43,598 nt of DNA from Candidatus Krumholzibacteriia bacterium. GTDB taxonomy: Bacteria; Krumholzibacteriota; Krumholzibacteriia; LZORAL124-64-63. The notes beneath the pieces were generated by a model. The model was not told the DNA's origin, made no database searches, and saw only the letters and a list, made by a program, of their open reading frames with translations. Position numbers and translations under genes: made by a program. Each line of letters begins with the position of its first letter. The stretch's first letter is position 1. Where the stretch lies: positions 1 to 43,598 of the forward strand of contig JAZBOO010000110.1 in the NCBI GenBank assembly GCA_036351155.1, read 5' to 3'. Shown one piece after another: positions 23,959 to 39,884 of the stretch.

Positions 23959-25980
23959 GTGCTTCTCTGCAATTCTAGCAACCGCTGTGCCGTATTCGGC
24001 CTGATTCTTCCCTTTGCCATCTTGTGGGGGACCGCGGTGCCTGCAGGGGCCACGGGCTATCTGACGGATGCCGCGACCGGGGTGTCTGAACAATCCTTTG
24101 CCGCGGCCATCTGTGAGCTGGAAGACATGAACGCCGATGGACGGGCAGAGTTCCTGGTCGGGGCTCCTGGTGACAACCAGAACGGGTTGCAAGCCGGAGC
24201 GGTGTTTTACTACCGCAGCCGTCCGAACAATGCCCATGGTCAGCAACAGATCTGGCGAGGCGTCGGTGGCGAGAAGTTTGGTTTTGCCGTGGCGCGCATC
24301 GGCGATGTGAACAGTGACGGCATTCCGGATTTTGCCGTGGGCGCCCCCCTGTCCGACACCGGCGGTGCCGACAGTGGCCGCGTTTGCCTGTTCTGGGGAG
24401 GAAGCACGATTTCCTCGACTCCGAATCTGGTCATTGCCGGAGCCACCGGCGGCGACCAGTTCGGTTTCTCCATCAGTGCGGCCGGGGACTTCAACGGTGA
24501 TGGCGAGGATGACTTCATCGTGGGTGCACCCTACCGCAATCAACCCGGCCTGGATTCCGGAGCGGCCTACGTCATCTTCGGTGACAACGGTGGGCCCAGC
24601 ACCGATCTGGCCGATGCCCTGGTGCTCGGCGGAGAAATCGCCGGCAACCATTTCGGCTGGTCGGTCAGTGACGCCGGCAATTTCCTGGGCACGGCCAACG
24701 ACTGTGTGGCCGTGGGGGCTCCCGACAACCTGGCTGCCGGGGCGGTCTATGTCTACGAAGGGGCCTCGTTTCCCTCTTCGCCCAATGCGGTGTTTGACAA
24801 GAAAATCGTCAATGGCGCCGCCGCTGCTCCGGGCAGCAAGTACGGCTTCAGTGTGGAGAATGCCGGCCGCTGGGACAATGACGGTTACGATGATCTGGCC
24901 ATCGGTGCTCCGTTCTGCAACGAGTCGGCCATCGACGCGGGCCGGGTCGAGATCGTGTTCGGCGACACCTCACCGTCCTCCAGCGGCGATCGCTACGTCA
25001 ATGGAGAGACCGCCACCGACAACCTGGGCTATGCCCTGGCCGGAGTGGGCGATGTTATCGGGACCGGGAGCGATGACCTGCTGATCGGAGCCCCCGGCTA
25101 CGATGGAGACGCCTCCAACGGGGGACGTGCTTATCTGTTCGCCGGAGGGAGCTCCAGCAACAACGACGCCGGCAACCTGGAAGTGATTGCGGTGGACCCC
25201 CTGAATCCCGGGACATCGGCCAACGATCGCTTCGGCTGGGCGGTGTCTGCCGCCGGCCTTTTCGATGACGACGACAGCCTGGATTATGCCATTGGCGCCC
25301 CCGGCGGCAACATCGAGACCACCGCCGCCGCCGGCTATTGCTGGGTGCAGGACAGCGGGGGCGGCCTGGTGGGCTTGACCCTGCCGCAGTGGGATGTGGT
25401 CCGCACCGACCAGGGCACCGTCGAGGTGAGCTTCATTCTGGCGCTCGACCAGTCGGGCCTCCAGTCGCTGGCCCTTTCCCGTCTGGTGCCGGGTGCCCCG
25501 CCCCAGTTGCTGTGGGAGGGCTCTCCCCTGATGAATGAAGGGGTCACCGAGGGCCCGGCCATTTCTTTCGAGGGCCCGGTGTTTTCCTTCACCGACGCCA
25601 CCGCCCCGGCCGGCGAGTTTTCCTACCGCCTGGCCGTCACGACCACCTCGGGGCAAACCTTCACCCTCGATTCCCTGGCCGGTCCCTCCGCCCAGCTGGT
25701 CAGCCGGATGCGCGTGGAACCCGCCTGGCCCAACCCCTTCAACCCGTCGGTTTCGGTACGCTTCCAGGCTCCGGTGGGCACCCGGGTCCAGTGCCGCGTC
25801 ACCGACCTGCGGGGCCACCTGGTGACCGAGCTTTACGAGGGCCAGGGCTCTGGCGAGTGGCGCACCCTGACCTGGAATGGTCGCCATGATTCGGGTGCCC
25901 GGGTGGCATCGGGGATCTATCTGATCAGCGTGGAGGCCGGCAACGAACGCCAGGTCCAGCGCGTGGTCCTGGCCAAGTAA
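23959..25980 (+). CDS. Secreted FG-GAP (integrin-alpha-like) beta-propeller protein with C-terminal FlgD-Ig / sorting-like domain
   Basis: Signal-peptide-like N-terminus; about seven FG....GD.N.DG..D..VGAP repeats; C-terminal WPNPFNP...DLRG.LV..L...WNG......ASGIYL. Confidence 0.85.
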   Translation: MLLCNSSNRCAVFGLILPFAILWGTAVPAGATGYLTDAATGVSEQSFAAAICELEDMNADGRAEFLVGAPGDNQNGLQAGAVFYYRSRPNNAHGQQQIWRGVGGEKFGFAVARIGDVNSDGIPDFAVGAPLSDTGGADSGRVCLFWGGSTISSTPNLVIAGATGGDQFGFSISAAGDFNGDGEDDFIVGAPYRNQPGLDSGAAYVIFGDNGGPSTDLADALVLGGEIAGNHFGWSVSDAGNFLGTANDCVAVGAPDNLAAGAVYVYEGASFPSSPNAVFDKKIVNGAAAAPGSKYGFSVENAGRWDNDGYDDLAIGAPFCNESAIDAGRVEIVFGDTSPSSSGDRYVNGETATDNLGYALAGVGDVIGTGSDDLLIGAPGYDGDASNGGRAYLFAGGSSSNNDAGNLEVIAVDPLNPGTSANDRFGWAVSAAGLFDDDDSLDYAIGAPGGNIETTAAAGYCWVQDSGGGLVGLTLPQWDVVRTDQGTVEVSFILALDQSGLQSLALSRLVPGAPPQLLWEGSPLMNEGVTEGPAISFEGPVFSFTDATAPAGEFSYRLAVTTTSGQTFTLDSLAGPSAQLVSRMRVEPAWPNPFNPSVSVRFQAPVGTRVQCRVTDLRGHLVTELYEGQGSGEWRTLTWNGRHDSGARVASGIYLISVEAGNERQVQRVVLAK

Positions 25981-25988
25981 AGGGCCCC

Positions 25989-26942
25989 ATGGACCGTATC
26001 GAACTGCACACCCACCTGGAAGGGTCGGTCACTCCGGCGCGTCTGATTGCTCAGGCCGAGAAGTACGGTCAGCCCGGCTTGCCTTTGGCCTGTCTGGACG
26101 AGACGGGAACGCGCTATCGGTTCGCGGGTTTCCACGGCTTTCTGGATCTCTACAAGAACGTCACGCTGCTGCTGAAGGAGCCCGCCGATTTCCGGGCCAT
26201 CACCCTCGACCTGGGGCAACAGCTGGCCCGGGACGAGGTGGGCTATGCTGAGGTGATTGTCTCCTTCGGGGTGATGAAGCTGCGGGGCCTCGATCCGCTG
26301 CCCTTGCAACACGCCATCTGGGAGGCGGCGCAGCAGGTCCAGGAAACTCATGGTGTGACCATGCGCTTCCTGCCCGATGCGGTCCGGCAGTTCGGCCGGG
26401 ATGAGGCCATGCGCGTCTGGGAGGCCGCGGCCACCTGCGGGCGTGCGCTGGGGGTGGTGGGGTTCGGTCTGGGCGGCGATGAAACCGCGGGCCCTGCTTC
26501 GAACTTTGCTTCCCTGTGCGAGGAGGTACGGCGCGAAGGTCTGGGCTTGTCTTTTCATGCGGGCGAGGTGACGGCCATGGGACGCAAGGCCGCAGACTCG
26601 GTGCGCCAGGCGGTCGAGGTCTGCGGCGCCGACCGGATCGGCCACGGCCTGGCCGCTCCCGGTGACCCTCTGGTCATGGGCCTGCTGGCGGCCCGGGGCA
26701 CCTTCGTGGAGCTCTGTCCACGCTCCAACGTGGCCACGGGCAACCTGCGCCGGCTGGCTGACCACCCCGTGCGCGCCTTCCTCGACGCCGGCATTCCCTG
26801 CTGCCTCAATACCGATGACCGCACCCTGTTCGACCTCGATCTGGCCGGCGAGTATGCGGCCGCGGTGGAAACTTTGGATCTGACCGAGGCCGAGGTCACG
26901 CTGATGCATGAGCAGGCGCGGCAGGCGGCCTTCGGGCCCTGA
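25989..26942 (+). CDS. add: Adenosine/adenine deaminase family protein
   Basis: ELHTHLEG, FHAGE, RIGHG, ELCPRSN and NTDD metal/catalytic motifs. Confidence 0.88.
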   Translation: MDRIELHTHLEGSVTPARLIAQAEKYGQPGLPLACLDETGTRYRFAGFHGFLDLYKNVTLLLKEPADFRAITLDLGQQLARDEVGYAEVIVSFGVMKLRGLDPLPLQHAIWEAAQQVQETHGVTMRFLPDAVRQFGRDEAMRVWEAAATCGRALGVVGFGLGGDETAGPASNFASLCEEVRREGLGLSFHAGEVTAMGRKAADSVRQAVEVCGADRIGHGLAAPGDPLVMGLLAARGTFVELCPRSNVATGNLRRLADHPVRAFLDAGIPCCLNTDDRTLFDLDLAGEYAAAVETLDLTEAEVTLMHEQARQAAFGP

Positions 26943-26964
26943 AACTTTTAGCTGGAGGCGGGCC

Positions 26965-27399
26965 TTGGAATACAAGGGACTGGTGATCGGCGGGTTGTTG
27001 CCTGCCCTGGCGTTTGGTCTGGCGGGGATCCTGCAAAAATCGGCCTCGCGCTCCACCCCGGGCATGGGACCGTATCTGCTCTGCATCGGGCTGGGCGTTC
27101 TGTTGACAGGGGCGATTTACACCGCGATGACAACGGACCGCAACATTACCCTGCCCGCCGGGACGATGGCGCTGGGGATCGGGTTGTCCTGGGGTACGGG
27201 CATGCTCCTGGTGGGACTGGGGATCGGCCACTTCGCCGTTCCCCTGTCCAAGCTGGCCCCTCTGTATAACATGAACACCCTGGTGGTGGTCTTGCTGGCT
27301 CTGGTGTTCTTTGCCGAGGCCCGCGAGGTGATGGTGCCCCGTCTGGTTCTGGGTACCCTCCTGATCCTGGCCGGAGGTGCGGTGGTGGCCCGGTCTTGA
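26965..27399 (+). CDS. Small DMT/EamA-like membrane protein
   Basis: About 144 aa with about five hydrophobic segments; LSKLAPL..MN.LVVVLLALVFFAE pattern; TTG after GGAGG. Confidence 0.7.
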   Translation: MEYKGLVIGGLLPALAFGLAGILQKSASRSTPGMGPYLLCIGLGVLLTGAIYTAMTTDRNITLPAGTMALGIGLSWGTGMLLVGLGIGHFAVPLSKLAPLYNMNTLVVVLLALVFFAEAREVMVPRLVLGTLLILAGGAVVARS

Positions 27400-27544
27400 A
27401 CGATTTCATGGAATCCATTATTTCTCTTGCGCACACCTGAATTTCACCCATTATACCGCTCCGTTTTCATGGTATCTTGAAGGTGGCCTCAATTCTGGGG
27501 TTTCCTGGTCAGATGTTGGTTGCCGACCGGAAGGGGACGTGGCC

Positions 27545-28642
27545 ATGTCCGATGAAAAGAAGCCTCCCGCCGCCTCGGAGTTCATCCTGCTGGATGGGGT
27601 GAGTTCCAGCTCCATTGACCTGACCGAAGACTACGGCCATCAGCATCTGGTGGCCTCCGATGCCAGCAGGCCCCTGCACGAAAGACTGGCCGCGTTCGAG
27701 GACGTGTACGAGAGCGAGGTGGGCGACACCTCCATCGTGCGGGCCCGGAACATCGAGCGGACCACCGGAATGCGTCAGCTTTTCCTGAAATTCGAGGGCA
27801 GCAACCCCAGCGGCACCCAGAAGGATCGGATTGCCTTCGCCCAGGCACTGGATGCGCTCCGCCGCGGCTTCGATGCCATGACCGTGGCCACCTGCGGTAA
27901 TTATGGCGTGGCCTCGGCCACCGCCGCGATGATGGCCGGCCTCAAGTGTTTCGTCTTCATTCCCCAGACCTACCAGACCCGTCGCGCCAAGGAGATGGAA
28001 GACCTGGGGGCCCAGATCATCCGGACCACGGGGGATTACGAGGCGGCCGTCCTCGAGTCGCAAGCCTATGCAGATCAGCACGAGGTGTACGATGCCAACC
28101 CCGGCGGGGCCAACACCCTTTTGCAGTTGCAGGCCTACGGGCAAATAGCTTACGAGATCTACGATGATTTGCGGGACGCTCCCTTTCTGGTGGCGGTGCC
28201 GGCCTCCAACGGCACCACGCTGGCGGGCATTCATCATGGCTTTGTGAGTCTGTTCCGTCGCGGCAAGACCTCGCGCATCCCGCACATGGTTTGCGGCTCT
28301 GCCCACGGCAAGAATCCCATCGTGGTGGCCTGGCGCAAGAATCTGGACCACTGCGCCGATCTGCGGCCGGAAAGCATCAAGGAAACCGCCATCAACGAAC
28401 CGCTGATCAACTGGCACAGCATCGACGGGGATCTGGCTCTCAATGCCCTGCGGCGCAGCGACGGCTGGGCGGCCGACGCCACCGACAAGGCCATGCGGGA
28501 TGGGGCACGCCTGTTGCGCGACCAGGAAGGCTTGAATGTTCTGCCGGCCTCGACCGCCGGTCTGCTGGTGTTGCTGGCTCGCCACCAGCGGGAGCCCCTG
28601 CCGGGCGACCGTTACGTGGCCATCATCACGGGAAGGAAATGA
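27545..28642 (+). CDS. Fold-type-II PLP-dependent enzyme (threonine synthase-like)
   Basis: LFLKFEGSNPSGTQKDR (Schiff-base Lys), ATCGNYG, VPASNGTTLAG, EGL.VLPAS and ITG motifs; AAGGGG RBS. Confidence 0.85.
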   Translation: MSDEKKPPAASEFILLDGVSSSSIDLTEDYGHQHLVASDASRPLHERLAAFEDVYESEVGDTSIVRARNIERTTGMRQLFLKFEGSNPSGTQKDRIAFAQALDALRRGFDAMTVATCGNYGVASATAAMMAGLKCFVFIPQTYQTRRAKEMEDLGAQIIRTTGDYEAAVLESQAYADQHEVYDANPGGANTLLQLQAYGQIAYEIYDDLRDAPFLVAVPASNGTTLAGIHHGFVSLFRRGKTSRIPHMVCGSAHGKNPIVVAWRKNLDHCADLRPESIKETAINEPLINWHSIDGDLALNALRRSDGWAADATDKAMRDGARLLRDQEGLNVLPASTAGLLVLLARHQREPLPGDRYVAIITGRK

Positions 28643-28643
28643 C

Positions 28644-29741
28644 ATGGGTTCTTGGCCTGAAGGCGTGGCAGTTGTCTACTGTCAGGGGGCGTTCAACACC
28701 ACCAACGGGAAAACAGCGCATGGCCTGGTGCGCCGTAGCGAACGGTATCCGGTGCTTTGCGTCATCGATGCCGAGTATGCCGGACAGGATGCGGGCATGG
28801 TCCTGGATGGTCGGCCCCGGGATATTCCCCTGGTGGCCAACCTGGCCCAGGCCCTGGCGCTGGCCGATCAGGAAGGAGTGAAGCTGACCCACTTCGTGGT
28901 GGGGTTGGCCCCGGACGGGGGACGCTTGCCGGGCCTGGCGCGCAACGATGTGGCGGCGGCCCTGAGGCATGGTCTGCATGTCGACAGCGGCCTGCACGAT
29001 TTTCTGAGCGAAGATCCCGAACTGGCCAGCCTGGCGCGCGACCACCGGGTCGTGATTCGTGACGTGCGTAAAACACCTCCTCGCAGTGAGTTACACTTCT
29101 TTGAAGGGCGTATCAACGAGGTCGATGCCTTCAAGGTGGCCATTCTGGGCACCGATTCTGCGGTGGGCAAGCGCACCACGGCCTGGTTGATGGTCGACGC
29201 CTGGCGCAAGGCGGGCCGGTGCACCGAAATGGTGGGCACCGGGCAGACGGCCTGGCTCCAGGGCGCGCGCTATTCCCTTATTCTGGACTCGCTGATCAAC
29301 GACTTCGTGGCCGGCGAGATCGAGCATGCGGTCTGGTCCTGCTGGTCCGAAGCAAAGGCCGAGATCATAGTCCTGGAAGGCCAGGGCAGCCTGATGAACC
29401 CGGCCTATCCCGGCGGGTTCGAGTTGCTGGCGGCCGGCCGCCCCGACGTGGTGGTGATGCAGCACGCCCCGGCCCGAAAAGAGTACGATGGTTTTCCCGG
29501 CCACCAGATGCACGACCTCCCGACCCAGATTCAGGCCGTGGAACTCCTGTCCGGCAAGCCGGTGGTGGCGGTCACCTTGAATCACGAATTGATGGCATCC
29601 GACGAGATCGATGCTGCCTGTGCCGTCATCACCCGGGAAACAGGCCTGCCGGCCTTCGACGTCCTGCGGGACGGGGCCGATCAGCTGATCGCACACCTCG
29701 ATGATCGCCTGGCGCAGCATGCCCAGGCCCGGAAGGAATAA
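28644..29741 (+). CDS. DUF1611 family P-loop protein (DgcN, D-glutamate N-acetyltransferase-like)
   Basis: GKTAHGLVR, SGLHDFL, GTDSAVGKRTT, GTGQT, DFVAGEIE and EGQGSL motifs typical of DUF1611. Confidence 0.88.
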   Translation: MGSWPEGVAVVYCQGAFNTTNGKTAHGLVRRSERYPVLCVIDAEYAGQDAGMVLDGRPRDIPLVANLAQALALADQEGVKLTHFVVGLAPDGGRLPGLARNDVAAALRHGLHVDSGLHDFLSEDPELASLARDHRVVIRDVRKTPPRSELHFFEGRINEVDAFKVAILGTDSAVGKRTTAWLMVDAWRKAGRCTEMVGTGQTAWLQGARYSLILDSLINDFVAGEIEHAVWSCWSEAKAEIIVLEGQGSLMNPAYPGGFELLAAGRPDVVVMQHAPARKEYDGFPGHQMHDLPTQIQAVELLSGKPVVAVTLNHELMASDEIDAACAVITRETGLPAFDVLRDGADQLIAHLDDRLAQHAQARKE

Positions 29742-29743
29742 CC

Positions 29744-32077
29744 ATGGCGCCGGCATCCCTGAAAGATCCCTTGCTGCCTTTGCTGGTCTGGGATCGGCTG
29801 GAAATTGGGCCGCCCCGCATCGAGGCGAAGCGCATCCGCGCCGCCTACACCGTGGTCAGGGACGGGCAAACCGAGTCCATCGACCTGACTTACTCCTGGG
29901 AGGAAGAGGTTTTCGACCCCGCGCTGCCCCAGGACGTCAACCTGGCGGGGATGATCCTGGCCCAGCTGGCCCTGAACTACGGTCTGTTCTGCCGGGAGAT
30001 GGTATTTCACGGCCCCTTCGACGAGCGCGACCGGCGCTTCCTGACGGATATGGCGCGCAATACGGCGCGGGAGATCTACGTCAACAAGTTCCTGATGCCC
30101 AATCCTTTCCTGGTGGGCGAGGCGGCCAAGTTGCCTGCCGAACGCCGGGACGATTACCTGCGGGCCAAGCTGGTTTTCCCCGACGCCGTGGGCGAGGTGG
30201 ACGTGCCGGCCTGGGGGCAGGGGCACAGCGACTGCTGTGTGCTGAGCAGCGGCGGCAAGGACAGCTTGCTGAGTTATGGCCTGTTGAACGAGGTGGGGGT
30301 GAAGTGTCACTCTGTCTTCATCAACGAGTCGGGCCGGCACTGGTTCACCGCTCTGAATGCCTATCGCGCCTTCAAGGAGGACGTGCCGGGCACCGCCCGG
30401 GTCTGGACCGATTGTGACCGGGTCTTCAACTGGATGCTGCGCCAGCTTCCTTTCGTGCGGCCTGACTACGCCAAGGTCCGGGCCGACATCTACCCGGTGC
30501 GGTTGTGGACCGTGGCGGTGTTTCTGTTCGGGGCCTTACCGCTGATGAAAAAGCGGGGCATCAGTCGCCTGGTCATCGGCGACGAGTTCGACACCTCGAT
30601 CCGGGCCCGCTTCAAGGGGATCACCCACTATGCGGGCCTGTACGACCAGAGCCGCTGGTTCGACCAGGCTCTCAGCCGCTACTTCCATCGCAAGGGGTGG
30701 AAGGTGCACCAGTTCTCGGTGCTGCGGCACCTGTCCGAGCTCCTCATCGAGAAGATCCTGGTGGAGCGCTACCCTGACCTGCAGGCCCTGCAGGTTTCCT
30801 GTCATGCGGCGCACCGCGGCCAGGAAAACGAAAAGGTGGGACCGTGCGGGCGATGCGAGAAGTGCCGCCGCATTGTCGGCATGCTGTCGGCCCTGGGCGC
30901 CGATCCCGGCCGCTGTGGGTACACTCCCGAGCAGATCCAGTGGTGCCTGAAGGAGGTCCTGGCCCGAGATGTGAAGCAGGAGAGCGAAGGGGTGGATCAG
31001 ATGGCCCTGCTGCTGCACGAGCGCGGTCTCTGGGATTCGGAAAAAGCTCTGCCGGCGCCCCATCCGGAAGTTTTGCAGCTGCGCCTGGACAAGGAACATG
31101 CGCCGTTGACCACCATGCCCACCGATCTGCGCGGCCCGGTGCTGGATCTATGCGGGCAACATGCTCAGGGGGCGGTGACCCGCAGCGGACGCATGTGGGT
31201 GCCGTGTGATCCGAGACAGGAATCTGACTTCAACCTGTCGGCCATGCACCAGACCGTGATGCCGCCGGCGGAGGACAAGCTGGATCTCAACGGAAAGGAG
31301 TCCTGGCTGCTGGCGCACCTGACCTGGCCAGAGGCCGAAGCCCGCTTCCGTGAAACGGACCTGGTGCTGCTGCCGGTGGGGGCCATTGAACAGCACGGGC
31401 CGCATCTGCCCCTGGACACCGACGCCTACGACGCCGACCATCTGGCCCGCCAGGTGGCCGCGGCCTGCAGCGATCCCAAGCCCCTGGTGCTGCCCTTGAT
31501 TGCCTATGGCGTTTCGTATCACCACGAAGATTTTCCTGGCACCTTGTCGGTGACCAACGAAACCATGGCCAAGATCGTCTATGACGTGGGCATGGGGGTG
31601 GCGCGCTGCGGAGCCACCAAGCTGGTGATCATCAACGGCCATGGCGGCAATGGGCCGGCCCTGGCCTTTGCCGCGCAGATGATCAACCGGGATGCACGCA
31701 TCTTCACCTGCGTGGAGTCGGGCGAAACCAGCGACGTGGATATTGACGGGCTGGCCGAAACGCCCAACGATGTGCATGCCGGGGAGGTAGAGACCAGCAC
31801 CACCCTGGCCCTGCGTCCCCACCTGGTGCGCATGGACAAGGCGCGGTCGGCGGTGCCCAGCTTCTCCAGCCGTTTTCTGGATTTCACCAACCAGCGCTCC
31901 GTGGACTGGAATGCCTATACCCATCGGATTTCCCCGACTGGCGTGCTGGGCGACCCCACCAAGGCCACCCCGGAAAAGGGCAAGCTCATGTGGGATCTGA
32001 TCGTCAACAACCTGGTCGAATTCGTCGAGGACCTGAAAAGCCTCTCCCTGGACGAAATTCACCAGCGCAGGTATTGA
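29744..32077 (+). CDS. Fusion of an N-terminal PP-loop ATP-pyrophosphatase (MurL/QueC-like) domain and a C-terminal creatininase-family amidohydrolase
   Basis: LSSGGKDS PP-loop, FSVLRHLSELL and SCH...CGRCEKC Cys cluster; from about aa 519 LTWPE, LPVGAIEQHGPHLPLDTD, NGHGGN, HAGEVETS and GVLGDP. Confidence 0.85.
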   Translation: MAPASLKDPLLPLLVWDRLEIGPPRIEAKRIRAAYTVVRDGQTESIDLTYSWEEEVFDPALPQDVNLAGMILAQLALNYGLFCREMVFHGPFDERDRRFLTDMARNTAREIYVNKFLMPNPFLVGEAAKLPAERRDDYLRAKLVFPDAVGEVDVPAWGQGHSDCCVLSSGGKDSLLSYGLLNEVGVKCHSVFINESGRHWFTALNAYRAFKEDVPGTARVWTDCDRVFNWMLRQLPFVRPDYAKVRADIYPVRLWTVAVFLFGALPLMKKRGISRLVIGDEFDTSIRARFKGITHYAGLYDQSRWFDQALSRYFHRKGWKVHQFSVLRHLSELLIEKILVERYPDLQALQVSCHAAHRGQENEKVGPCGRCEKCRRIVGMLSALGADPGRCGYTPEQIQWCLKEVLARDVKQESEGVDQMALLLHERGLWDSEKALPAPHPEVLQLRLDKEHAPLTTMPTDLRGPVLDLCGQHAQGAVTRSGRMWVPCDPRQESDFNLSAMHQTVMPPAEDKLDLNGKESWLLAHLTWPEAEARFRETDLVLLPVGAIEQHGPHLPLDTDAYDADHLARQVAAACSDPKPLVLPLIAYGVSYHHEDFPGTLSVTNETMAKIVYDVGMGVARCGATKLVIINGHGGNGPALAFAAQMINRDARIFTCVESGETSDVDIDGLAETPNDVHAGEVETSTTLALRPHLVRMDKARSAVPSFSSRFLDFTNQRSVDWNAYTHRISPTGVLGDPTKATPEKGKLMWDLIVNNLVEFVEDLKSLSLDEIHQRRY

Positions 32078-32078
32078 A

Positions 32079-33143
32079 ATGAAGATCTCGCGTGCTGAAG
32101 CCTGGCGCTGTGACATGCCCCTGGCTGAGCCCTACGCAATCGCCTACGAGACGGTGGACAAGGCGGCCAATATCTTCCTGGTGATCGAGGCCGGCGGCTT
32201 GCGCGGTTGTGGCTGCGCGGCTCCTGACGAGCCGGTCACCGGGGAAACACCGGAAGCCACTCTGGCCCTGTTTCAGGACCAGATCGTGCCGGCGCTGAAG
32301 GGCCGTGATCCGCTGCGCCCGGCTTACCTGCTGGACCAGTTGGAATCTTTGCTGCAGGGTCGTCCCTCGGCCCGCGCGGCGGTGGACATGGCCCTGTGGG
32401 ATTTGATGGGGCACGCCTCCGGCTTACCCCTTTGGCGCATGTTCGGGGGCTATCGGCGGCGCATCCTGACCAGCGTCACCATCGGGATCTTACCGGTGGA
32501 CGAAACGGTGGCTCGGGCTCGGGATTTCATCGGGCAAGGTTTCCAGTGCTTGAAGCTCAAGGGCGGGCTGGATCCCGACCTGGATGCCGAACGCGTGCTG
32601 AAAGTGCGTGAGGCCGTGGGTGAACGTATTCGCCTGCGGTTCGACGCCAATCAGGGCTACACAGTGGAGCAGACCATGGCCTTCGTGGCGGCGGTACGCC
32701 GGGGCAAGCTGGAACTCATCGAACAGCCGACGCCGAAGGGAGAACCCCACCTTCTGGGGCGTGCGGCCGCCAGCGTGTCCTTGCCGGTGATGGCCGACGA
32801 AAGCCTGGTTTCCCTGCGCGATGCCTTCAAGCTGGCACGCCGCGACCTGGCCGACATGGTGAACGTGAAGCTGATGAAGGTGGGAGGGCTGAGCGAGGCT
32901 CTGAAAATTGACGCCGTTTCCCAGTCCGCGGGCATCGAGGTGATGGTCGGCTGCATGGATGAGGCTGCTCTGGGGATCGCCGCCGGGCTGCAGTATGCCC
33001 TGGCCCGTCGCAACGTCCACTTCGCCGATCTGGACGGGCACCTGGACCTGCTGGACGATCCCACCGATGGTGCGGTGATCCTGCAGGATGGGTGGTTAAT
33101 CGCGAAGGAAGAGCCGGGACTGGGATTCACCTTCCCGGCGTGA
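32079..33143 (+). CDS. Enolase-superfamily dipeptide epimerase (L-Ala-D/L-Glu epimerase / DgcA-like)
   Basis: KLK catalytic motif; metal ligands in DANQ, EQP and ADES; NVKLMK second Lys; GCM.E; DLDG (DxD of dipeptide epimerases). Confidence 0.9.
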   Translation: MKISRAEAWRCDMPLAEPYAIAYETVDKAANIFLVIEAGGLRGCGCAAPDEPVTGETPEATLALFQDQIVPALKGRDPLRPAYLLDQLESLLQGRPSARAAVDMALWDLMGHASGLPLWRMFGGYRRRILTSVTIGILPVDETVARARDFIGQGFQCLKLKGGLDPDLDAERVLKVREAVGERIRLRFDANQGYTVEQTMAFVAAVRRGKLELIEQPTPKGEPHLLGRAAASVSLPVMADESLVSLRDAFKLARRDLADMVNVKLMKVGGLSEALKIDAVSQSAGIEVMVGCMDEAALGIAAGLQYALARRNVHFADLDGHLDLLDDPTDGAVILQDGWLIAKEEPGLGFTFPA

Positions 33144-33144
33144 G

Positions 33145-33174
33145 AAAACGTCCTGGGCCGTTCAGCCCAGGACG
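33145..33174 (-). terminator. Hairpin between convergent genes; terminator for the metG unit
   Basis: CGTCCTGGGC-6nt-GCCCAGGACG perfect 10-bp stem, followed by TTTTC on the minus strand. Confidence 0.65.
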
Positions 33175-33632
33175 GTCTCCAGGTATTTCAGAGCCGCAGG
33201 CCCCAGATTCTCACCGGAACTGGTGCCCACCACTGCGCCCTTGCTGTCGGCCACCACGACCACGGCCTGCTTGGTGCTGCCGGTGGCCTTGAGCTGGTCG
33301 GTCACGGCTCCATCCCAGTCGGGCAGGATGATGACATATTCCTTGGGGTCCAGCTCCTCGGGCAGCTTGCCGGCCGCCTTCAGGTAGGCTTTTTCCAGCT
33401 CGGGCTTCACCATCCCGTGGAACATGCTGGGAAACGAGCGCAGGTCCACGATCGAGGCGATGACCACGCGCTGAGCCTCAGGGTATTTTTCCCGGACGGA
33501 ATTGTTGACCTCGAAGGCCGCCTTGGCCGTGTCCTGGCCATGGCAGACCAGCACGGTGGGGCGTCCCAGCCGGGACAGCTTGATCTCCATCCGGCCACCG
33601 GCGCTGTGGAGAATCTTGTCGGGTAGGAGCAT
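33162..33632 (-). CDS. Hypothetical protein, possibly thioredoxin-like fold without CxxC
   Basis: 156-aa ORF 1 nt downstream of metG; ILPDWDG.V and VVVAD.KG.V resemble redoxin-fold strands. Confidence 0.6.
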   Translation of the reverse strand: MLLPDKILHSAGGRMEIKLSRLGRPTVLVCHGQDTAKAAFEVNNSVREKYPEAQRVVIASIVDLRSFPSMFHGMVKPELEKAYLKAAGKLPEELDPKEYVIILPDWDGAVTDQLKATGSTKQAVVVVADSKGAVVGTSSGENLGPAALKYLETVLG

Positions 33633-33633
33633 C

Positions 33634-35337
33634 TCAGCCCTCCAGCATCTGGTTGAGTCGGTCGATCTCCACCTGGATCTGCTCTTCTTCCAGGCGGGGA
33701 AACAGGATCTCTGGTTTCCCCAGTGATCGGCCGCTGGGCAGGTCCACTTGACCTTCTTCCCACCCTCCTTGCCAGAGGTCGGTTTCCATGCCGAACCAGC
33801 TCCAAAGTTTTTCCATGCCGAAGGGCACCACCGGCGCCAGCATCAGACACAGCATGCGCAGGATCTGGAACACCACGCCCAGGCTCTGGGCGCAGCGCTC
33901 ACGGTCATCCTTGCGGGTCTTGAAGGGAGCGGATTCGTCGAAGTACCGGTTGCCCACCTGACCGGCGTGGAAGCAGGCTTCCATGGCGGCCTTGATCTCG
34001 AACTTCTCCAGATGCGCGGCCCATTTTTCCAGATCGGCCTGGACCTCGGCCAGGGCCTGACGGTCCAGATCGGTCATGGCCTCGCGGGACCACTCGGGCA
34101 CCTGACCCTCGAAGTGCTTGTGGGTGAAGCTGAACACGCGGTTGACCAGGTTGCCGAAATTATTGCCCAGCTCGTTGTCGTTGCGGGCCAGGAAACCTTC
34201 CCAGGTGAAGTTCATGTCCCGTGTCTCGGGCAGGTTGCGGGCCAGTGTGTAACGCAGGGGATCGGGGCTGAACTTCTCCAGGTAGTCGGGCAACCACACG
34301 GCAAAGCCGCGGCTGGTCGAGAGCTTTTGCCCTTCCAGGTTCAAGAACTCGTTGGCCGGCACGTTTTCCGGCAAGATGTAATCCTCGCTGTGGGCCATCA
34401 GCATGGCCGGGAACATCACCGCGTGGAAAAACACGTTGTCCTTGCCGATGAAGTGCACCAGCCGGGTGTCCTCCTGCTGCCACCAGGTTTTCCAGGCTTC
34501 GGGATCACCCTGGCCGGCGGCCCATTCACGGGTGGCGCTGATGTAGCCGATGGGCGCCTCGAACCACACGTAGAACACCTTGCCGTCGTGGTCGGGCAAG
34601 GGCACGGGCACTCCCCAGTCCAGGTCGCGGGTGACGGCACGATCTTGCAGCCCGTCCTTGAACCAGCCCCGGCAATACTGCTTGACGTTGTCCTTCCACT
34701 CGGGATGCGCGTCAATCAGGGCGATCAGCCTGTCCTGCCAGTCACCCAGGGGCAGAAACCAGTGGGTCGTTTCGCGAAGTTCCAGGGGGCTGTTGTCCTG
34801 AGCATTGCGAGGATTCACCAGCTCGGTGGGGTCCAGGGATGATCCGCAGGCCTCGCACTGGTCACCGCGTGCACCCTCGCTGCTGCACTTGGGGCAGGTG
34901 CCCTCGATGTAGCGGTCGGCCAGAAAGCGTTTCTGGCTGGGACTGTAGAACTGCTCGGTGGTCTTCTGACGGAACACTCCCTGGCTGTGCAGGTCGGTGA
35001 AGAAAGCCTGAGCTGTCTCGGTATGGACCGGGCGGCTGGTCTGGCTGAAGTTGTCGAAGCTCATCCCGAAACCCTCGAACGATTTCTTGATCGAGGCGTG
35101 ATTCCGGTCCACCAGTTCCTTGGGGGTGATGCCCTCGCGCTCGGCCGTCAGGGTGATGGGCACACCATATTCATCGCTTCCGCAGATATACAGGACCTCT
35201 TCACCCCGCATGCGCAGATAACGCGCGTAGATGTCGGCGGGCAAATAGGCGCCGGCCAGGTGGCCCAGGTGGATCTCGCCGTTGGCATACGGCAGGGCGC
35301 TGGTGACCAGGGTCCGCTTGAATTTGGAGCTCATCAT
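33634..35337 (-). CDS. metG: Methionyl-tRNA synthetase (short form, no C-terminal Trbp111 domain)
   Basis: TSALPYANG.IHLGH, CGSDEYG, CPKC...CEAC knuckle, RDLDWGVPVP, YVWF, FIGKDN and KLSTS motifs. Confidence 0.97.
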   Translation of the reverse strand: MMSSKFKRTLVTSALPYANGEIHLGHLAGAYLPADIYARYLRMRGEEVLYICGSDEYGVPITLTAEREGITPKELVDRNHASIKKSFEGFGMSFDNFSQTSRPVHTETAQAFFTDLHSQGVFRQKTTEQFYSPSQKRFLADRYIEGTCPKCSSEGARGDQCEACGSSLDPTELVNPRNAQDNSPLELRETTHWFLPLGDWQDRLIALIDAHPEWKDNVKQYCRGWFKDGLQDRAVTRDLDWGVPVPLPDHDGKVFYVWFEAPIGYISATREWAAGQGDPEAWKTWWQQEDTRLVHFIGKDNVFFHAVMFPAMLMAHSEDYILPENVPANEFLNLEGQKLSTSRGFAVWLPDYLEKFSPDPLRYTLARNLPETRDMNFTWEGFLARNDNELGNNFGNLVNRVFSFTHKHFEGQVPEWSREAMTDLDRQALAEVQADLEKWAAHLEKFEIKAAMEACFHAGQVGNRYFDESAPFKTRKDDRERCAQSLGVVFQILRMLCLMLAPVVPFGMEKLWSWFGMETDLWQGGWEEGQVDLPSGRSLGKPEILFPRLEEEQIQVEIDRLNQMLEG

Positions 35338-38441: not shown

Positions 38442-38666
38442 ATGCCACTTTATGAGTTCACCTGCAAGAAATGCGGACACAATTTCGAAGAGTTGATGAC
38501 CCTCAGCGAAGTCGAGTCCGGCAAGACCAAGTGCCCGGCCTGCAGCTCGAAACGCCTCGAGCGCGGTTTTTCCAGCTTTGCCACCGGCGGTGGGGACAGC
38601 CTGGGCTCAGGTGGGTTCTCGGGCGGCGGCTGTGGCAGTGGCGGCGGCGGCTTCACCTGAGGCTAG
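38442..38666 (+). CDS. FmdB-family zinc-ribbon protein, probably a selenoprotein ending in -FT-U-G (ends at 38660 if UGA is a stop)
   Basis: MPLYEFTCKKCG..FEEL...CPACSS..LER.FS.F, then Gly-rich tail CGSGGGGFT-TGA-GGC-TAG; GGAGG RBS. Confidence 0.85.
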
Positions 38667-39761
38667 CCAGCCAGGGCGACCGTGTGTCGTCAACAAGATC
38701 ATGCGCGCCGGAAGCCTCGGGTTTCCGGCGTTTTTTCTGAGAGTGGGCCGATAGGACGGCGAACATTCCCGGACCTGGGATGACCGCTGATGCACCAGGG
38801 CATGACACGCACTGCACAGCGTGGTCAGGTTCTCGGGATCGTGGGTCCCGCCCCGGGCGCGGGGGATGATGTGGTGGATCTCCAGGAAGTGGGTGTGGGG
38901 GCAGCCGGGAGTCTGGCACCGGTGGCGGTCGCGGGCGAGGACCAGGCGCCGCGTTCTGGGCGGAATGGTGGTGGTGTTGCGGTGGTCTGGCTCGCTGATC
39001 TGGGCGTCGCACTGGAGGCGCGCGGTTTCCTCGGGCGAAAGCGTGAGCTCCCCGCGCGCCGTCTGGACCGTGGTCTTTTCACAATCCGGGCACTGGTGCA
39101 CGTGGATCTGGACCGGGGGCGCCGTGGTGGGTTTTTCCAACGGGTTGGAATTTCCATCAACGAAATTCTGCATCACTTCCAGCAGCGCCTCGACCTTGTC
39201 TGCCGGCAAGCCGCCCTGCTTGCGCAGCTTCTCCCACAGGGCTTCGTAGCGGGCCAGCTGGGTGGGTGTCATTTCCAGGATCACGCGCTGGGGGATGGGG
39301 GCGGCCGGCACGGGCTCCTCGGGAAAAATCGCCACCTGTCCTTTCGCCACCTCGGCAGCCCGGGCCTTGGCTTTTTTCACCGTGCTTTTCAACCGGGCGT
39401 GCGACTGGGTCAGCGCCAGATCCACCCACTCCTTCTCGGTTTCCGGACTGGCCACCGCCACAATGGTGCGGGTGCGGCCATACCCCAGCTTCCCCTCTTC
39501 GACCTTCTTTTTCACAGCGGGCAGCTCATCCAGCTTCTCGCAGATCTTCATGAAGTCGTAGGCCTTGGACTGACTCCAGCCCAGCTCCTGCTGGGCATAC
39601 AGGGGCATGGAGGAGTACCCCAGCTCACGGTACAGCTTCCGCTGGCGAATCTCGCCAAACCAGAGAATGGCGTTCTGGCGGGCCATTTCCATGGCGTGGT
39701 TTGCTTTTTTGAGGTGCTGGTCGGCCGATTTGGCGGGTAATCCCTTAATAAACGTGAGCAT
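38607..39761 (-). CDS. HNH endonuclease with N-terminal HTH-like region (DUF222-like architecture)
   Basis: C-terminal IPPRTRR.VLARD..RC..PGC.....LEIHHI.P...GG......NL.TLC..CH...H; N-terminal YRELGYSS...YA..ELGWS.SKAY; GAGGA RBS before ATG 39761. Confidence 0.88.
   Translation of the reverse strand: MLTFIKGLPAKSADQHLKKANHAMEMARQNAILWFGEIRQRKLYRELGYSSMPLYAQQELGWSQSKAYDFMKICEKLDELPAVKKKVEEGKLGYGRTRTIVAVASPETEKEWVDLALTQSHARLKSTVKKAKARAAEVAKGQVAIFPEEPVPAAPIPQRVILEMTPTQLARYEALWEKLRKQGGLPADKVEALLEVMQNFVDGNSNPLEKPTTAPPVQIHVHQCPDCEKTTVQTARGELTLSPEETARLQCDAQISEPDHRNTTTIPPRTRRLVLARDRHRCQTPGCPHTHFLEIHHIIPRARGGTHDPENLTTLCSACHALVHQRSSQVRECSPSYRPTLRKNAGNPRLPARMILLTTHGRPGWLASGEAAAATATAAAREPT
38675..38691 (+). 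promoter_or_regulatory. Candidate bacterial SECIS element 2
   Basis: GGCGAC-CGTGT-GTCGTC stem-loop; loop 20 nt after the UGA, with G at loop position 2. Confidence 0.5.
38706..38736 (+). terminator. Intrinsic terminator after the fmdB-like gene
   Basis: CGCCGGAAGCC-TCG-GGTTTCCGGCG followed by TTTTTT. Confidence 0.85.
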
Positions 39762-39884
39762 AGCGCTATCCTCGATCTTGAAGCCTTTGGGAGGCTTTAT
39801 CAAGATAGCGAACACAACACGAATCCGCCAGGAGAAAAGCGTAAAAAACACAAAATTCTAGAAAAACACCAGAGGGCCCCGACC

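Follow-up and report, generated by a model that had tools for sequence, protein, structure and literature searches.

A four-gene bacterial operon built around a MurL/QueC-like ATPase-creatininase fusion, with a tentative role in amino-acid stereo-inversion

Contig JAZBOO010000110.1 of a Candidatus Krumholzibacteriia bacterium (GCA_036351155.1; positions 1 to 43,598, here called the window) carries, at 27545-33143 on the forward strand, four genes in the same orientation that raise a question of purpose: why would a threonine synthase (ThrC)-like pyridoxal 5'-phosphate (PLP) enzyme, a DUF1611 protein, a fusion of a PP-loop ATP pyrophosphatase with a creatininase-family amidohydrolase and an enolase-family dipeptide epimerase be encoded together, in that order? 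A first-pass annotation, made from the sequence alone, had taken the group as an extension of the DgcN/DgcA D-glutamate module. Our analysis demonstrates that the four genes form one accessory operon. We tentatively read this operon, with confidence that stops a little short of even, as a system that inverts the configuration of a non-acidic, possibly basic, amino acid with the help of ATP and releases it via a blocked intermediate.

The list of open reading frames (ORFs) and the junction sequence place the genes 1, 2 and 1 nt apart. The PLP gene (27545..28642, +; 365 amino acids) ends with a TGA at 28640-28642, one nucleotide before the ATG of the DUF1611 gene at 28644 (28644..29741, +; 365 amino acids). 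This gene ends at 29741, two nucleotides before the fusion ATG at 29744 (29744..32077, +; 777 amino acids), and the fusion in turn ends at 32077, one nucleotide before the epimerase ATG at 32079 (32079..33143, +; 354 amino acids). A GGAAGG-like or AGG purine run lies upstream of each start. Together with the Pfam matches, these junctions bear out the gene set, domain identities and operon structure of the first-pass annotation. The 3' boundary of the operon is marked by a perfect 10-bp inverted repeat (33149..33174, no strand assigned) between the epimerase stop and a convergent gene (33162-33632, -). In the terminator scan this repeat was terminator-like for the minus strand, where its T-run lies, and no plus-strand T-run followed it.

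We assessed whether the arrangement recurs by following the relatives of the ATPase half of the fusion, of which 2907 were found at E <=0.001 among 8000 candidates scored. A scan with one genome per species gave 584 encoding stretches, and the architecture counts reported here refer to the best 80 of these 584 loci, called by tblastn with the window proteins. The full order of PLP enzyme, DUF1611, fusion and epimerase was present in 58 of the 80 loci; another nine were clipped by contig ends and consistent with it. Given protein identities to the window proteins of 52-89% across loci, recurrence of the same order in 58 loci indicates that the gene arrangement is more than chance, and the doubt that the four genes might not be co-conserved elsewhere was not borne out. 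The PLP gene was syntenic with the fusion in 70 of the 80 loci. Domain content was taken from 120 listed ATPase homologues, 111 of them PF02633 fusions of about 770-810 amino acids and the other 9 stand-alone ATPases of 505-585 amino acids. Clustering of ORFs of at least 70 amino acids from the 80 loci revealed no fifth conserved gene, the other large clusters being antisense shadow ORFs.

Variant loci indicate which parts of this cassette belong most closely together. In a short form, seen in 7 of the 80 loci (L029, L031, L053, L054, L067, L068 and L085), the PLP gene is followed directly by the fusion, without DUF1611 and epimerase, and in genomes with this form DUF1611 and epimerase genes were found just at the level of paralogues (37-41% identity). 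Two loci carry only the PLP enzyme, DUF1611 and the ATPase, two carry these with the epimerase and without the creatininase domain, and two carry the fusion without the PLP and DUF1611 genes (L070, which also lacks the epimerase, and L058, whose contig ends too early to judge the epimerase). In a midpoint-rooted FastTree phylogeny of 81 ATPase domains, the tree mostly follows taxonomy, with Desulfobacterales, Gemmatimonadota, Calditrichia and Krumholzibacteria each split, and the short variant occupies three separate positions, each beside long-variant sequences of the same taxon. DUF1611 and the epimerase thus appear to have been lost on at least three separate occasions, each giving rise to the short form, and we read the PLP enzyme and the fusion as the probable core, with DUF1611 and the epimerase as an add-on module.

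The carriers, according to the record titles of the 80 loci, span at least 11 phylum-level groups and include Krumholzibacteria, Calditrichia, Ignavibacteria, several classes of Acidobacteriota, Desulfobacterales, Desulfatiglandales, Phycisphaerae, Gemmatimonadota, Woeseiaceae, Bacteroidales, Cytophagia, Lewinellaceae, Zixibacteria, KSB1 and Eisenbacteria; two are cultured, Desulfosarcina variabilis and D. alkanivorans. Within the phylum of the window genome the cassette ATPase was present in 31 of 151 sampled genomes (25 of the 117 that are at least 90% complete) and not found in the other 120, and within its own genus it was present in 2 of 4 genomes, the two without it being 94-96% complete. 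This distribution argues that the cassette is accessory and not housekeeping. Each of the five genomes checked has one fusion gene, and tblastn against 72,556 plasmid records gave no matches. Separately, a 1762-amino-acid EukProt model (P0124; 55% identity) contains the PLP enzyme, DUF1611, MurL-like domain, creatininase and epimerase in operon order. We rejected it as a real fusion, as its match to the 201-position DUF1611_C model breaks off at position 134 and it is probably a contaminant bacterial operon merged by a eukaryotic gene caller.

The ATPase half of the fusion was compared with known families by sequence and by structure. No Pfam family covers fusion residues 1-510, and a sequence search for solved relatives found none, the best hit being a ribosomal protein at E 1.7. 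An AlphaFold (AF2) model of this half, built from 33 homologues, has a mean predicted local distance difference test score (pLDDT) of 90.4. The model comprises an N-terminal subdomain of beta-sheet and two long helices with no fold match (residues 1-~159; 29744..30220, +), a PP-loop core (residues 160-390; 30221..30913, +) and a C-terminal helical subdomain (residues 391-510), which with the linker occupies 30914..31273 (+). The N-terminal subdomain has pLDDT values mostly above 90 and is kept in all 33 aligned homologues, those of short-variant loci included. The core bears the PP-loop motif SSGGKDS at fusion residues 168-174 and a Zn-type cluster of four cysteines (C353, C368, C371 and C374); these residues are kept in 81 of 81 sequences, with D173 present as D in 73 and E in 8.

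Structural matches cover fusion residues 158-475 only, the C-terminal helical subdomain being partly covered. Foldseek ranked QatC, QueC, TtuA and Cap9 highest (E 9e-6 to 1e-3, with QatC 9y02_B at E 9e-6), and VIA-align gave Cap9 (9nto_B; Z 12.8, root-mean-square deviation (rmsd) 2.7 over 178 residues) and QueC (3bl5_A; Z 12.7, rmsd 3.1 over 189 residues), with other PP-loop enzymes at Z 9.2 or below and the lactam-forming beta-lactam and carbapenam synthetases at Z 4.9-5.8. At the sequence level, the MurL model NF041275 was matched weakly by 33 of 33 homologues (best E 1.3e-8; window protein 22.6 bits, cut-off 700) in an alignment restricted to model positions 241-335, and MurL clusters made up 28 of the 30 language-model (Atlas) neighbours of the ATPase half. 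Pfam QueC (PF06508) was weakly matched by 18 of the 33 homologues (best E 7e-4), the window protein not among them. Collectively, the profile matches and the model place this domain, as a predicted assignment, as a distant relative of MurL with a QueC/Cap9-like core and not as a member of MurL itself, a likeness that the first-pass annotation did not contain.

The remainder of the fusion is a creatininase-family metal amidohydrolase (residues 524-761; 31313..32026, +) that aligns with the full PF02633 model (positions 1-238 of 238; E 2.7e-72, 243.5 bits vs gathering 31.3). Its metal-ligand motifs E-x-H, D-x-D, N-G-H-G-G-N and H-A-G-E-x-E are intact, the ligand columns are kept in 67-70 of 70 sequences, and solved creatininases match it at E 4e-22 to 2e-15. 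It falls below the cut-offs of both named relatives, at 160.9 bits against 172 for MftE (TIGR03964) and 114.8 against 235 for creatininase (TIGR04448), and the model of ArfB, an FAPy deformylase, matches it weakly (E 8e-6). No mftA-, mftB- or mftC-like gene was found among the recurrent neighbours of the 80 loci. One fusion homologue carries the source name 'mycofactocin peptidyl-dipeptidase MftE', which is probably an over-annotation.

The most direct indication of the substrate comes from the epimerase, which matches MR_MLE_N (E 1e-15) and MR_MLE_C (E 5e-46) and whose closest solved relatives are the dipeptide epimerases 3rit (E 3e-68, 233.8 bits; about 40-45% identity, estimated by eye), 1jpm/1tkk (1e-63) and 3jva (3e-61). 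The catalytic lysines K159/K161 and K264, the metal ligands D189, E215 and D240, and the pair D317-x-D319 are all kept in 61 of 61 orthologues. In the Bacillus subtilis L-Ala-D/L-Glu epimerase (AEE), the Asp-x-Asp pair binds the dipeptide alpha-ammonium, and Arg24 on the capping loop binds the substrate carboxylate (10.1101/2022.05.01.490185). The cassette enzyme has E24 in the window, and at this capping-loop position the 61 orthologues have E (55), Q (4) or D (2). Its hallmark residues place it in the dipeptide epimerase group of the enolase superfamily (MLE subgroup); they suggest that its substrate would have a free N-terminus and would thus be a dipeptide rather than an N-acetyl amino acid, and that the C-terminal side chain is probably non-acidic and may be basic. 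Since the equivalent of Arg24 is E, Q or D in all 61 orthologues, D-Glu is an unlikely substrate. The enzyme also scores well below the models of the known Glu-directed relatives: 164.7 bits against a cut-off of 400 for DgcA (NF042940), and 188.3 against 500 (NF041118) and 113.2 against 343 (PRK15129) for the two AEE models.

The DUF1611 protein, which has a Rossmann-like N domain and a P-loop C domain, matches DUF1611_N (PF17396; E 4e-23) and DUF1611_C (PF07755; E 3e-61) and has relatives of known structure (PDB 2g0t, 2obn and 7xrj; E 2e-36 to 2e-24). Its P-loop G-T-D-S-x-x-G-K-R-T is kept in 64-65 of 65 sequences and presumably resembles the dethiobiotin-synthetase loop; the protein may be an ATP-using ligase. 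On the DgcN model NF041892 it scores 141.1 bits against a cut-off of 480, and it is a family member at the Pfam level only. In one Acidobacteria metagenome-assembled genome, the cassette DUF1611 gene (L019:5861-6949) has one in-frame stop, which may be a sequencing error or mark a pseudogene.

Other loci provide further context for this family, as DUF1611 lies beside amino-acid-metabolism enzymes or a carrier in three of them. In the short-cassette genome G153, paralogues of DUF1611 and the epimerase stand side by side next to an ArgE/DapE-type deacylase. This stand-alone cluster (L121, C1:3757500-3762500) lies about 85 kb from the short cassette, with the deacylase divergent and Lys at position 24 of the epimerase, features suggesting a DgcN/DgcA-like module that would act on an acidic residue. 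In a second genome (G154; L122, C1:1811500-1815500), the order is AgcS amino-acid carrier, DUF1611, esterase-family gene and HAD hydrolase; the stand-alone epimerase paralogues of G153 and G154 both have Lys at position 24 and keep the Asp-x-Asp pair. The third context is in the window genome itself, where a second DUF1611 gene (contig C120, L115:1012-3880), 40% identical to the cassette copy, overlaps a PLP gene resembling ornithine racemase (Orr; NF040742, 381 bits, cut-off 480). This Orr-like gene in turn overlaps a VanY/M15 D-Ala-D-Ala-peptidase-like gene followed by a Zn-dependent dehydrogenase, and the cluster appears to be a further small operon acting on D-amino acids or dipeptides. 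A link between the cassette and this racemase operon was considered and dropped: orthologues at >=48% identity occur in 5 of 151 genomes, and the cassette is present in just 2 of the 5.

DUF1611 is thus accompanied by a stereo-inverting enzyme and an amide hydrolase in the cassette and in two of the three other contexts, G154 being the exception, and this company fits the block-invert-unblock logic of DgcN and DgcA. The gene comparisons show that DUF1611 and the enolase epimerase form a separable module. The earlier claim of a DgcN/DgcA module therefore stands in part: the pair can be separated from the cassette and occurs alone in G153, whereas neither protein is an orthologue of its namesake (141 vs 480 bits for DgcN; 165 vs 400 for DgcA).

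The PLP enzyme is a ThrC-fold (fold-type II) protein that matches Pfam PALP (E 2e-49) and is the sole one of the genome's three ThrC-family proteins to pass NCBIfam PRK06381, a model named 'threonine synthase' that covers an uncharacterised ThrC-like clade (410.6 bits, cut-off 266). No PRK06381 member over this cut-off was found in 14 control genomes. On the canonical thrC model TIGR00260 it reaches 80.5 bits (~81) against a cut-off of 167.1, and the two other ThrC-family genes reach 164.3-164.8 and 156.6-157.1 bits, just below it. The first-pass annotation had wondered whether this was simply the only threonine synthase of the genome; it is one of three such genes, the other two fit canonical thrC twice as well, and two of the four sampled genomes of the genus lack the cassette. 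Its nearest solved relatives are threonine synthases, at just E 1e-20, and its protein-atlas neighbours bear only 'threonine synthase'-type names. The PLP lysine K93 and the C117, G118, N119 loop are kept in 71 of 71 orthologues. At the positions aligned with T88, S155 and R160, the probable substrate-phosphate residues of Thermus thermophilus ThrC, the cassette family has Y/F/H, P (70/71) and Q (70/71); this is a weak hint, because the genome's other two ThrC-like proteins also align poorly there, without an obvious Arg. The label 'threonine synthase' that this gene receives via PRK06381 is probably an over-annotation. Serine racemase presumably has its second catalytic base at the position of the invariant Cys117, a correspondence that we regard as a lead and not a finding.

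How might these activities be combined? In the scheme that we tentatively favor, whose steps are all inferred, DUF1611 would first acylate or aminoacylate an amino acid and so block its amino group, by analogy with DgcN. The enolase-family enzyme would then reversibly epimerize the C-terminal residue of the resulting dipeptide-like compound, whose N-terminal ammonium would be free and whose side chain would be non-acidic and possibly basic. The MurL/QueC-like domain would adenylate the C-terminal alpha-carboxylate, converting ATP to AMP and pyrophosphate (PPi) and making the inversion unidirectional, by analogy with MurL. The fused creatininase-type amidohydrolase would cut an amide or ring and free the amino acid, which the ThrC-fold PLP enzyme would make or consume. 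The precedent for the third step is described in the portions of the MurL reports available to us (PMC5808125, PMC8788868), where MurL is an ATP- and Mg-dependent, AMP-forming, one-way L-to-D epimerase of a C-terminal Glu, for which its discoverers propose alpha-carboxylate adenylation followed by epimerization and hydrolysis, and in which, by the same portions, a recognizable domain is absent. Conservation supports the scheme, with the active-site motifs of all five domains invariant or nearly so, as do the three further contexts of DUF1611 described above.

Several observations weigh against this stereo-inversion scheme. Stereo-inversion would be provided for redundantly, by the enolase epimerase, by the MurL-like domain and perhaps also by a PLP enzyme of racemase type, and the role of the PLP enzyme fits no step clearly. 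Of the 80 loci, DUF1611 and the epimerase are absent from 7, the creatininase domain from 4 (2 of which have no epimerase either) and the PLP and DUF1611 genes from 2 that carry the fusion; with each variant missing some part, no one linear scheme fits all forms. The likeness to MurL is weak (~22 bits vs a cut-off of 700), and the relatives QueC, Cap9 and QatC form amides, so the ATPase half could ligate and not epimerize. The non-acidic substrate carries its own caveat, in that 3rit, which Lukk et al. 2012 reportedly assigned to a 'cationic dipeptide' group, has Arg at the position aligned with 24. Finally, the substrate and the enzyme activities are predictions from sequence.

The strongest competitor, which we consider a real but lesser possibility, is a biosynthetic role: the product would be a small metabolite, namely a dipeptide, an amino-acid amide or an amino-lactam, and might for instance be a compatible solute or signal. 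Here an unusual (di)amino acid made by the PLP enzyme would be ligated or cyclized with ATP, either by DUF1611 or by the QueC-like domain; the epimerase would set its configuration, and the creatininase domain would open or close a ring or proofread. In favor of this reading, ThrC/CysK-fold enzymes often catalyze beta- or gamma-replacement. The structure searches favor it as well, given that QueC and Cap9 (and QatC by Foldseek), the nearest structures to the ATPase core, activate a carboxylate and form amides, and lactam-forming PP-loop enzymes also match (Z 4.9-5.8). The cassette stands by itself: neither a peptidase nor an ABC importer recurs among its neighbors. Its distribution is patchy, and the YitT/DUF2179 membrane protein directly downstream in 9 loci could export a product. 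Set against this, most natural-product clusters differ from the cassette, whose gene content is near-invariant in 11 or more phylum-level groups, carboxylate activation and amide hydrolysis in one polypeptide look futile for net synthesis, and we found no product or describing paper in the literature searched.

A bolder proposal, which we consider unlikely as it stands, would assign the inversion to the fusion itself as an ATP-driven stereo-inverting hydrolase. The MurL-like half would adenylate the alpha-carboxylate of an N-blocked basic residue of the lysine (Lys), ornithine (Orn) or diaminobutyrate (Dab) type, the activated residue would cyclize to a five-membered oxazolone or amino-lactam ring with a labile alpha-proton, and the tethered creatininase domain would open this ring for a single enantiomer. 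With the Cys-bearing PLP enzyme, this would constitute a one-way D/L converter of basic amino acids scavenged from dead cells by sediment bacteria.

The reading closest to the first-pass annotation, an extended DgcN/DgcA-type route for recycling D-glutamate or a muropeptide (L-Ala-D-Glu) with the creatininase domain as deacylase, is improbable. Its appeal is that the pairing of DUF1611 with an enolase epimerase mirrors DgcN-DgcA and that MurL, AEE and DgcA all act on N-blocked Glu. However, the proteins score far below the cut-offs of the DgcN, DgcA and two AEE models, and the equivalent of Arg24 is acidic or Gln in 61 of 61 orthologues with Asp-x-Asp kept, whereas the stand-alone paralogues are basic there. 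The creatininase domain, moreover, remains fused to the ATPase in the 7 loci that lack both DUF1611 and the epimerase, which speaks against its being a simple deacylase of that module. Supply of D-amino acids to peptidoglycan was likewise rejected as a purpose and is excluded as a necessity, the genome having MurI (216 bits), MurD (358), Alr (292) and Ddl (281), all over their cut-offs.

Slightly less probable still is a QueC/Cap9-like ligase joining a heterocyclic carboxylate of the 7-deazaguanine or pterin type to a dipeptide or amino acid supplied by the other enzymes; the creatininase domain would then hydrolyze a formamide or a ring, like ArfB. Cap9, QueC and QatC are the best structural matches, 18 of 33 homologues weakly match Pfam QueC, and the creatininase family includes ArfB (weak match, E 8e-6), but all 33 homologues match the MurL model and only 18 the QueC model, no queuosine or deazapurine gene recurs nearby, and the partners are all amino-acid or dipeptide enzymes. 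That the PLP gene is a housekeeping threonine synthase with the other three genes adjacent by chance is effectively refuted despite its PRK06381 score (410.6 vs 266), given two other genes at about 164 and 157 on TIGR00260 vs its 81, no PRK06381 member over cut-off in the 14 control genomes, no cassette ATPase found in 120 of 151 genomes of the phylum, and PLP-fusion synteny in 70 of 80 loci.

The literature searched held no published description of the cassette, in keeping with the earlier suggestion of an undescribed pathway. What is new is the fusion enzyme and its substrate, neither of them described, and the fixed architecture of five activities; the families are known, and the strategy is probably akin to those of DgcN-DgcA and MurL. 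If the stereo-inversion scheme is correct, the cassette would represent a third version of block, invert, unblock D/L conversion and the first with an ATP step. It would provide a function for a large orphan branch of MurL/QueC-like ATPases and a second functional context for DUF1611, and would correct the pipeline names 'threonine synthase' and 'mycofactocin peptidase'. Carriers of the cassette number in the hundreds and are mostly uncultured bacteria of sediments, mats and wastewater, drawn from more than 10 phyla. In sediments, the D-amino acids left by dead cell walls make up a large store of organic nitrogen that is poorly understood, and a widespread dedicated converter would matter for its recycling. 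Makers of enantiopure amino acids would also have an interest in a one-way epimerase-hydrolase. The cultured D. variabilis and D. alkanivorans make the question testable at the bench.

The surroundings of the operon are unrelated housekeeping and envelope genes (adenosine deaminase, methionyl-tRNA synthetase (MetRS), an M1-type peptidase and an ABC-2 transporter). By tblastn, the window flank genes (adenosine deaminase, a hydrophobic 163-amino-acid ORF, a 156-amino-acid ORF and MetRS) were found in 0 of 80 related loci. The hydrophobic ORF (26908-27399, +), which lies between the adenosine deaminase gene and the operon, has no family match. No sigma-70-like promoter was detected in 26900-33700 by the promoter scan, and the sigma-54 consensus, with two mismatches allowed, gave 24 matches vs 24 expected, none of them upstream of the operon. 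Across the 80 loci the recurrent neighbors were sigma-54 activators (14), YitT/DUF2179 (9), DUF5698+DUF2179 (9) and MgtE (6). DUF2179 membrane proteins, either YitT or DUF5698+DUF2179, thus adjoin the cassette in 18 loci, often directly downstream (e.g. L053, L054, L056, L065, L067, L068, L077, L087 and L024). To our knowledge this family has no known function, and these proteins are possibly a candidate transporter for the cassette. Further afield, a 673-amino-acid FG-GAP repeat protein with a Por_Secre_tail for type IX secretion sorting (23959-25980, +) fits a member of the FCB group, and 5 kb downstream of the operon lies an HNH endonuclease gene with a weak DUF222 match (38607-39851, -), of a type often found in mobile or selfish elements.

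Comparison with known systems places the cassette between several of them. MurL is the only named family that the ATPase half matches at the sequence level; unlike MurL, the cassette domain is fused to a creatininase and accompanied by PLP, DUF1611 and enolase enzymes instead of MurD2, and it occurs in a genome that has MurI and a normal MurD, its substrate probably not being Glu. With QueC, Cap9 and QatC it shares the core fold (residues 160-390; Z 12.7-12.8 and Foldseek E 9e-6 to 2e-4), the SGGxDS PP-loop and the Cys cluster, whereas it adds N-terminal and C-terminal subdomains of ~160 and ~120 amino acids and has no deazapurine genes nearby. The creatininase half resembles MftE and creatininase over the whole domain and in its metal ligands and differs in falling below their cut-offs (narrowly for MftE, widely for creatininase), in having no mycofactocin genes among its recurrent neighbors and in its fusion to an ATPase. 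The epimerase shares with the dipeptide epimerases (YkfB 1jpm/1tkk, 3rit and 3jva) the KxK and K bases, three metal ligands and Asp-x-Asp site, and departs from YkfB in having Glu in place of Arg24 and in scoring below the AEE equivalog cut-offs.

The D-glutamate conversion pair DgcN-DgcA is reportedly the work of Yu et al. 2023, ISME J 17:537. The Geobacillus N-succinylamino-acid racemase operons, which are said to achieve an irreversible D-to-L conversion by acylating, racemizing with an enolase-family enzyme and deacylating, reportedly use a GNAT transferase and an M20 hydrolase, and unlike the cassette they would have no ATP step and no PLP enzyme. The DgcN-DgcA pathway converts D-Glu to L-Glu (PMC10845958). 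The cassette has the same family pair, a DUF1611 protein with an enolase-superfamily epimerase, and may share the logic of block, invert, unblock; it differs from DgcN-DgcA in that both proteins lie far below the equivalog cut-offs, in the acidic position 24 of its epimerase, and in the ATPase-amidohydrolase fusion and PLP enzyme that it adds.

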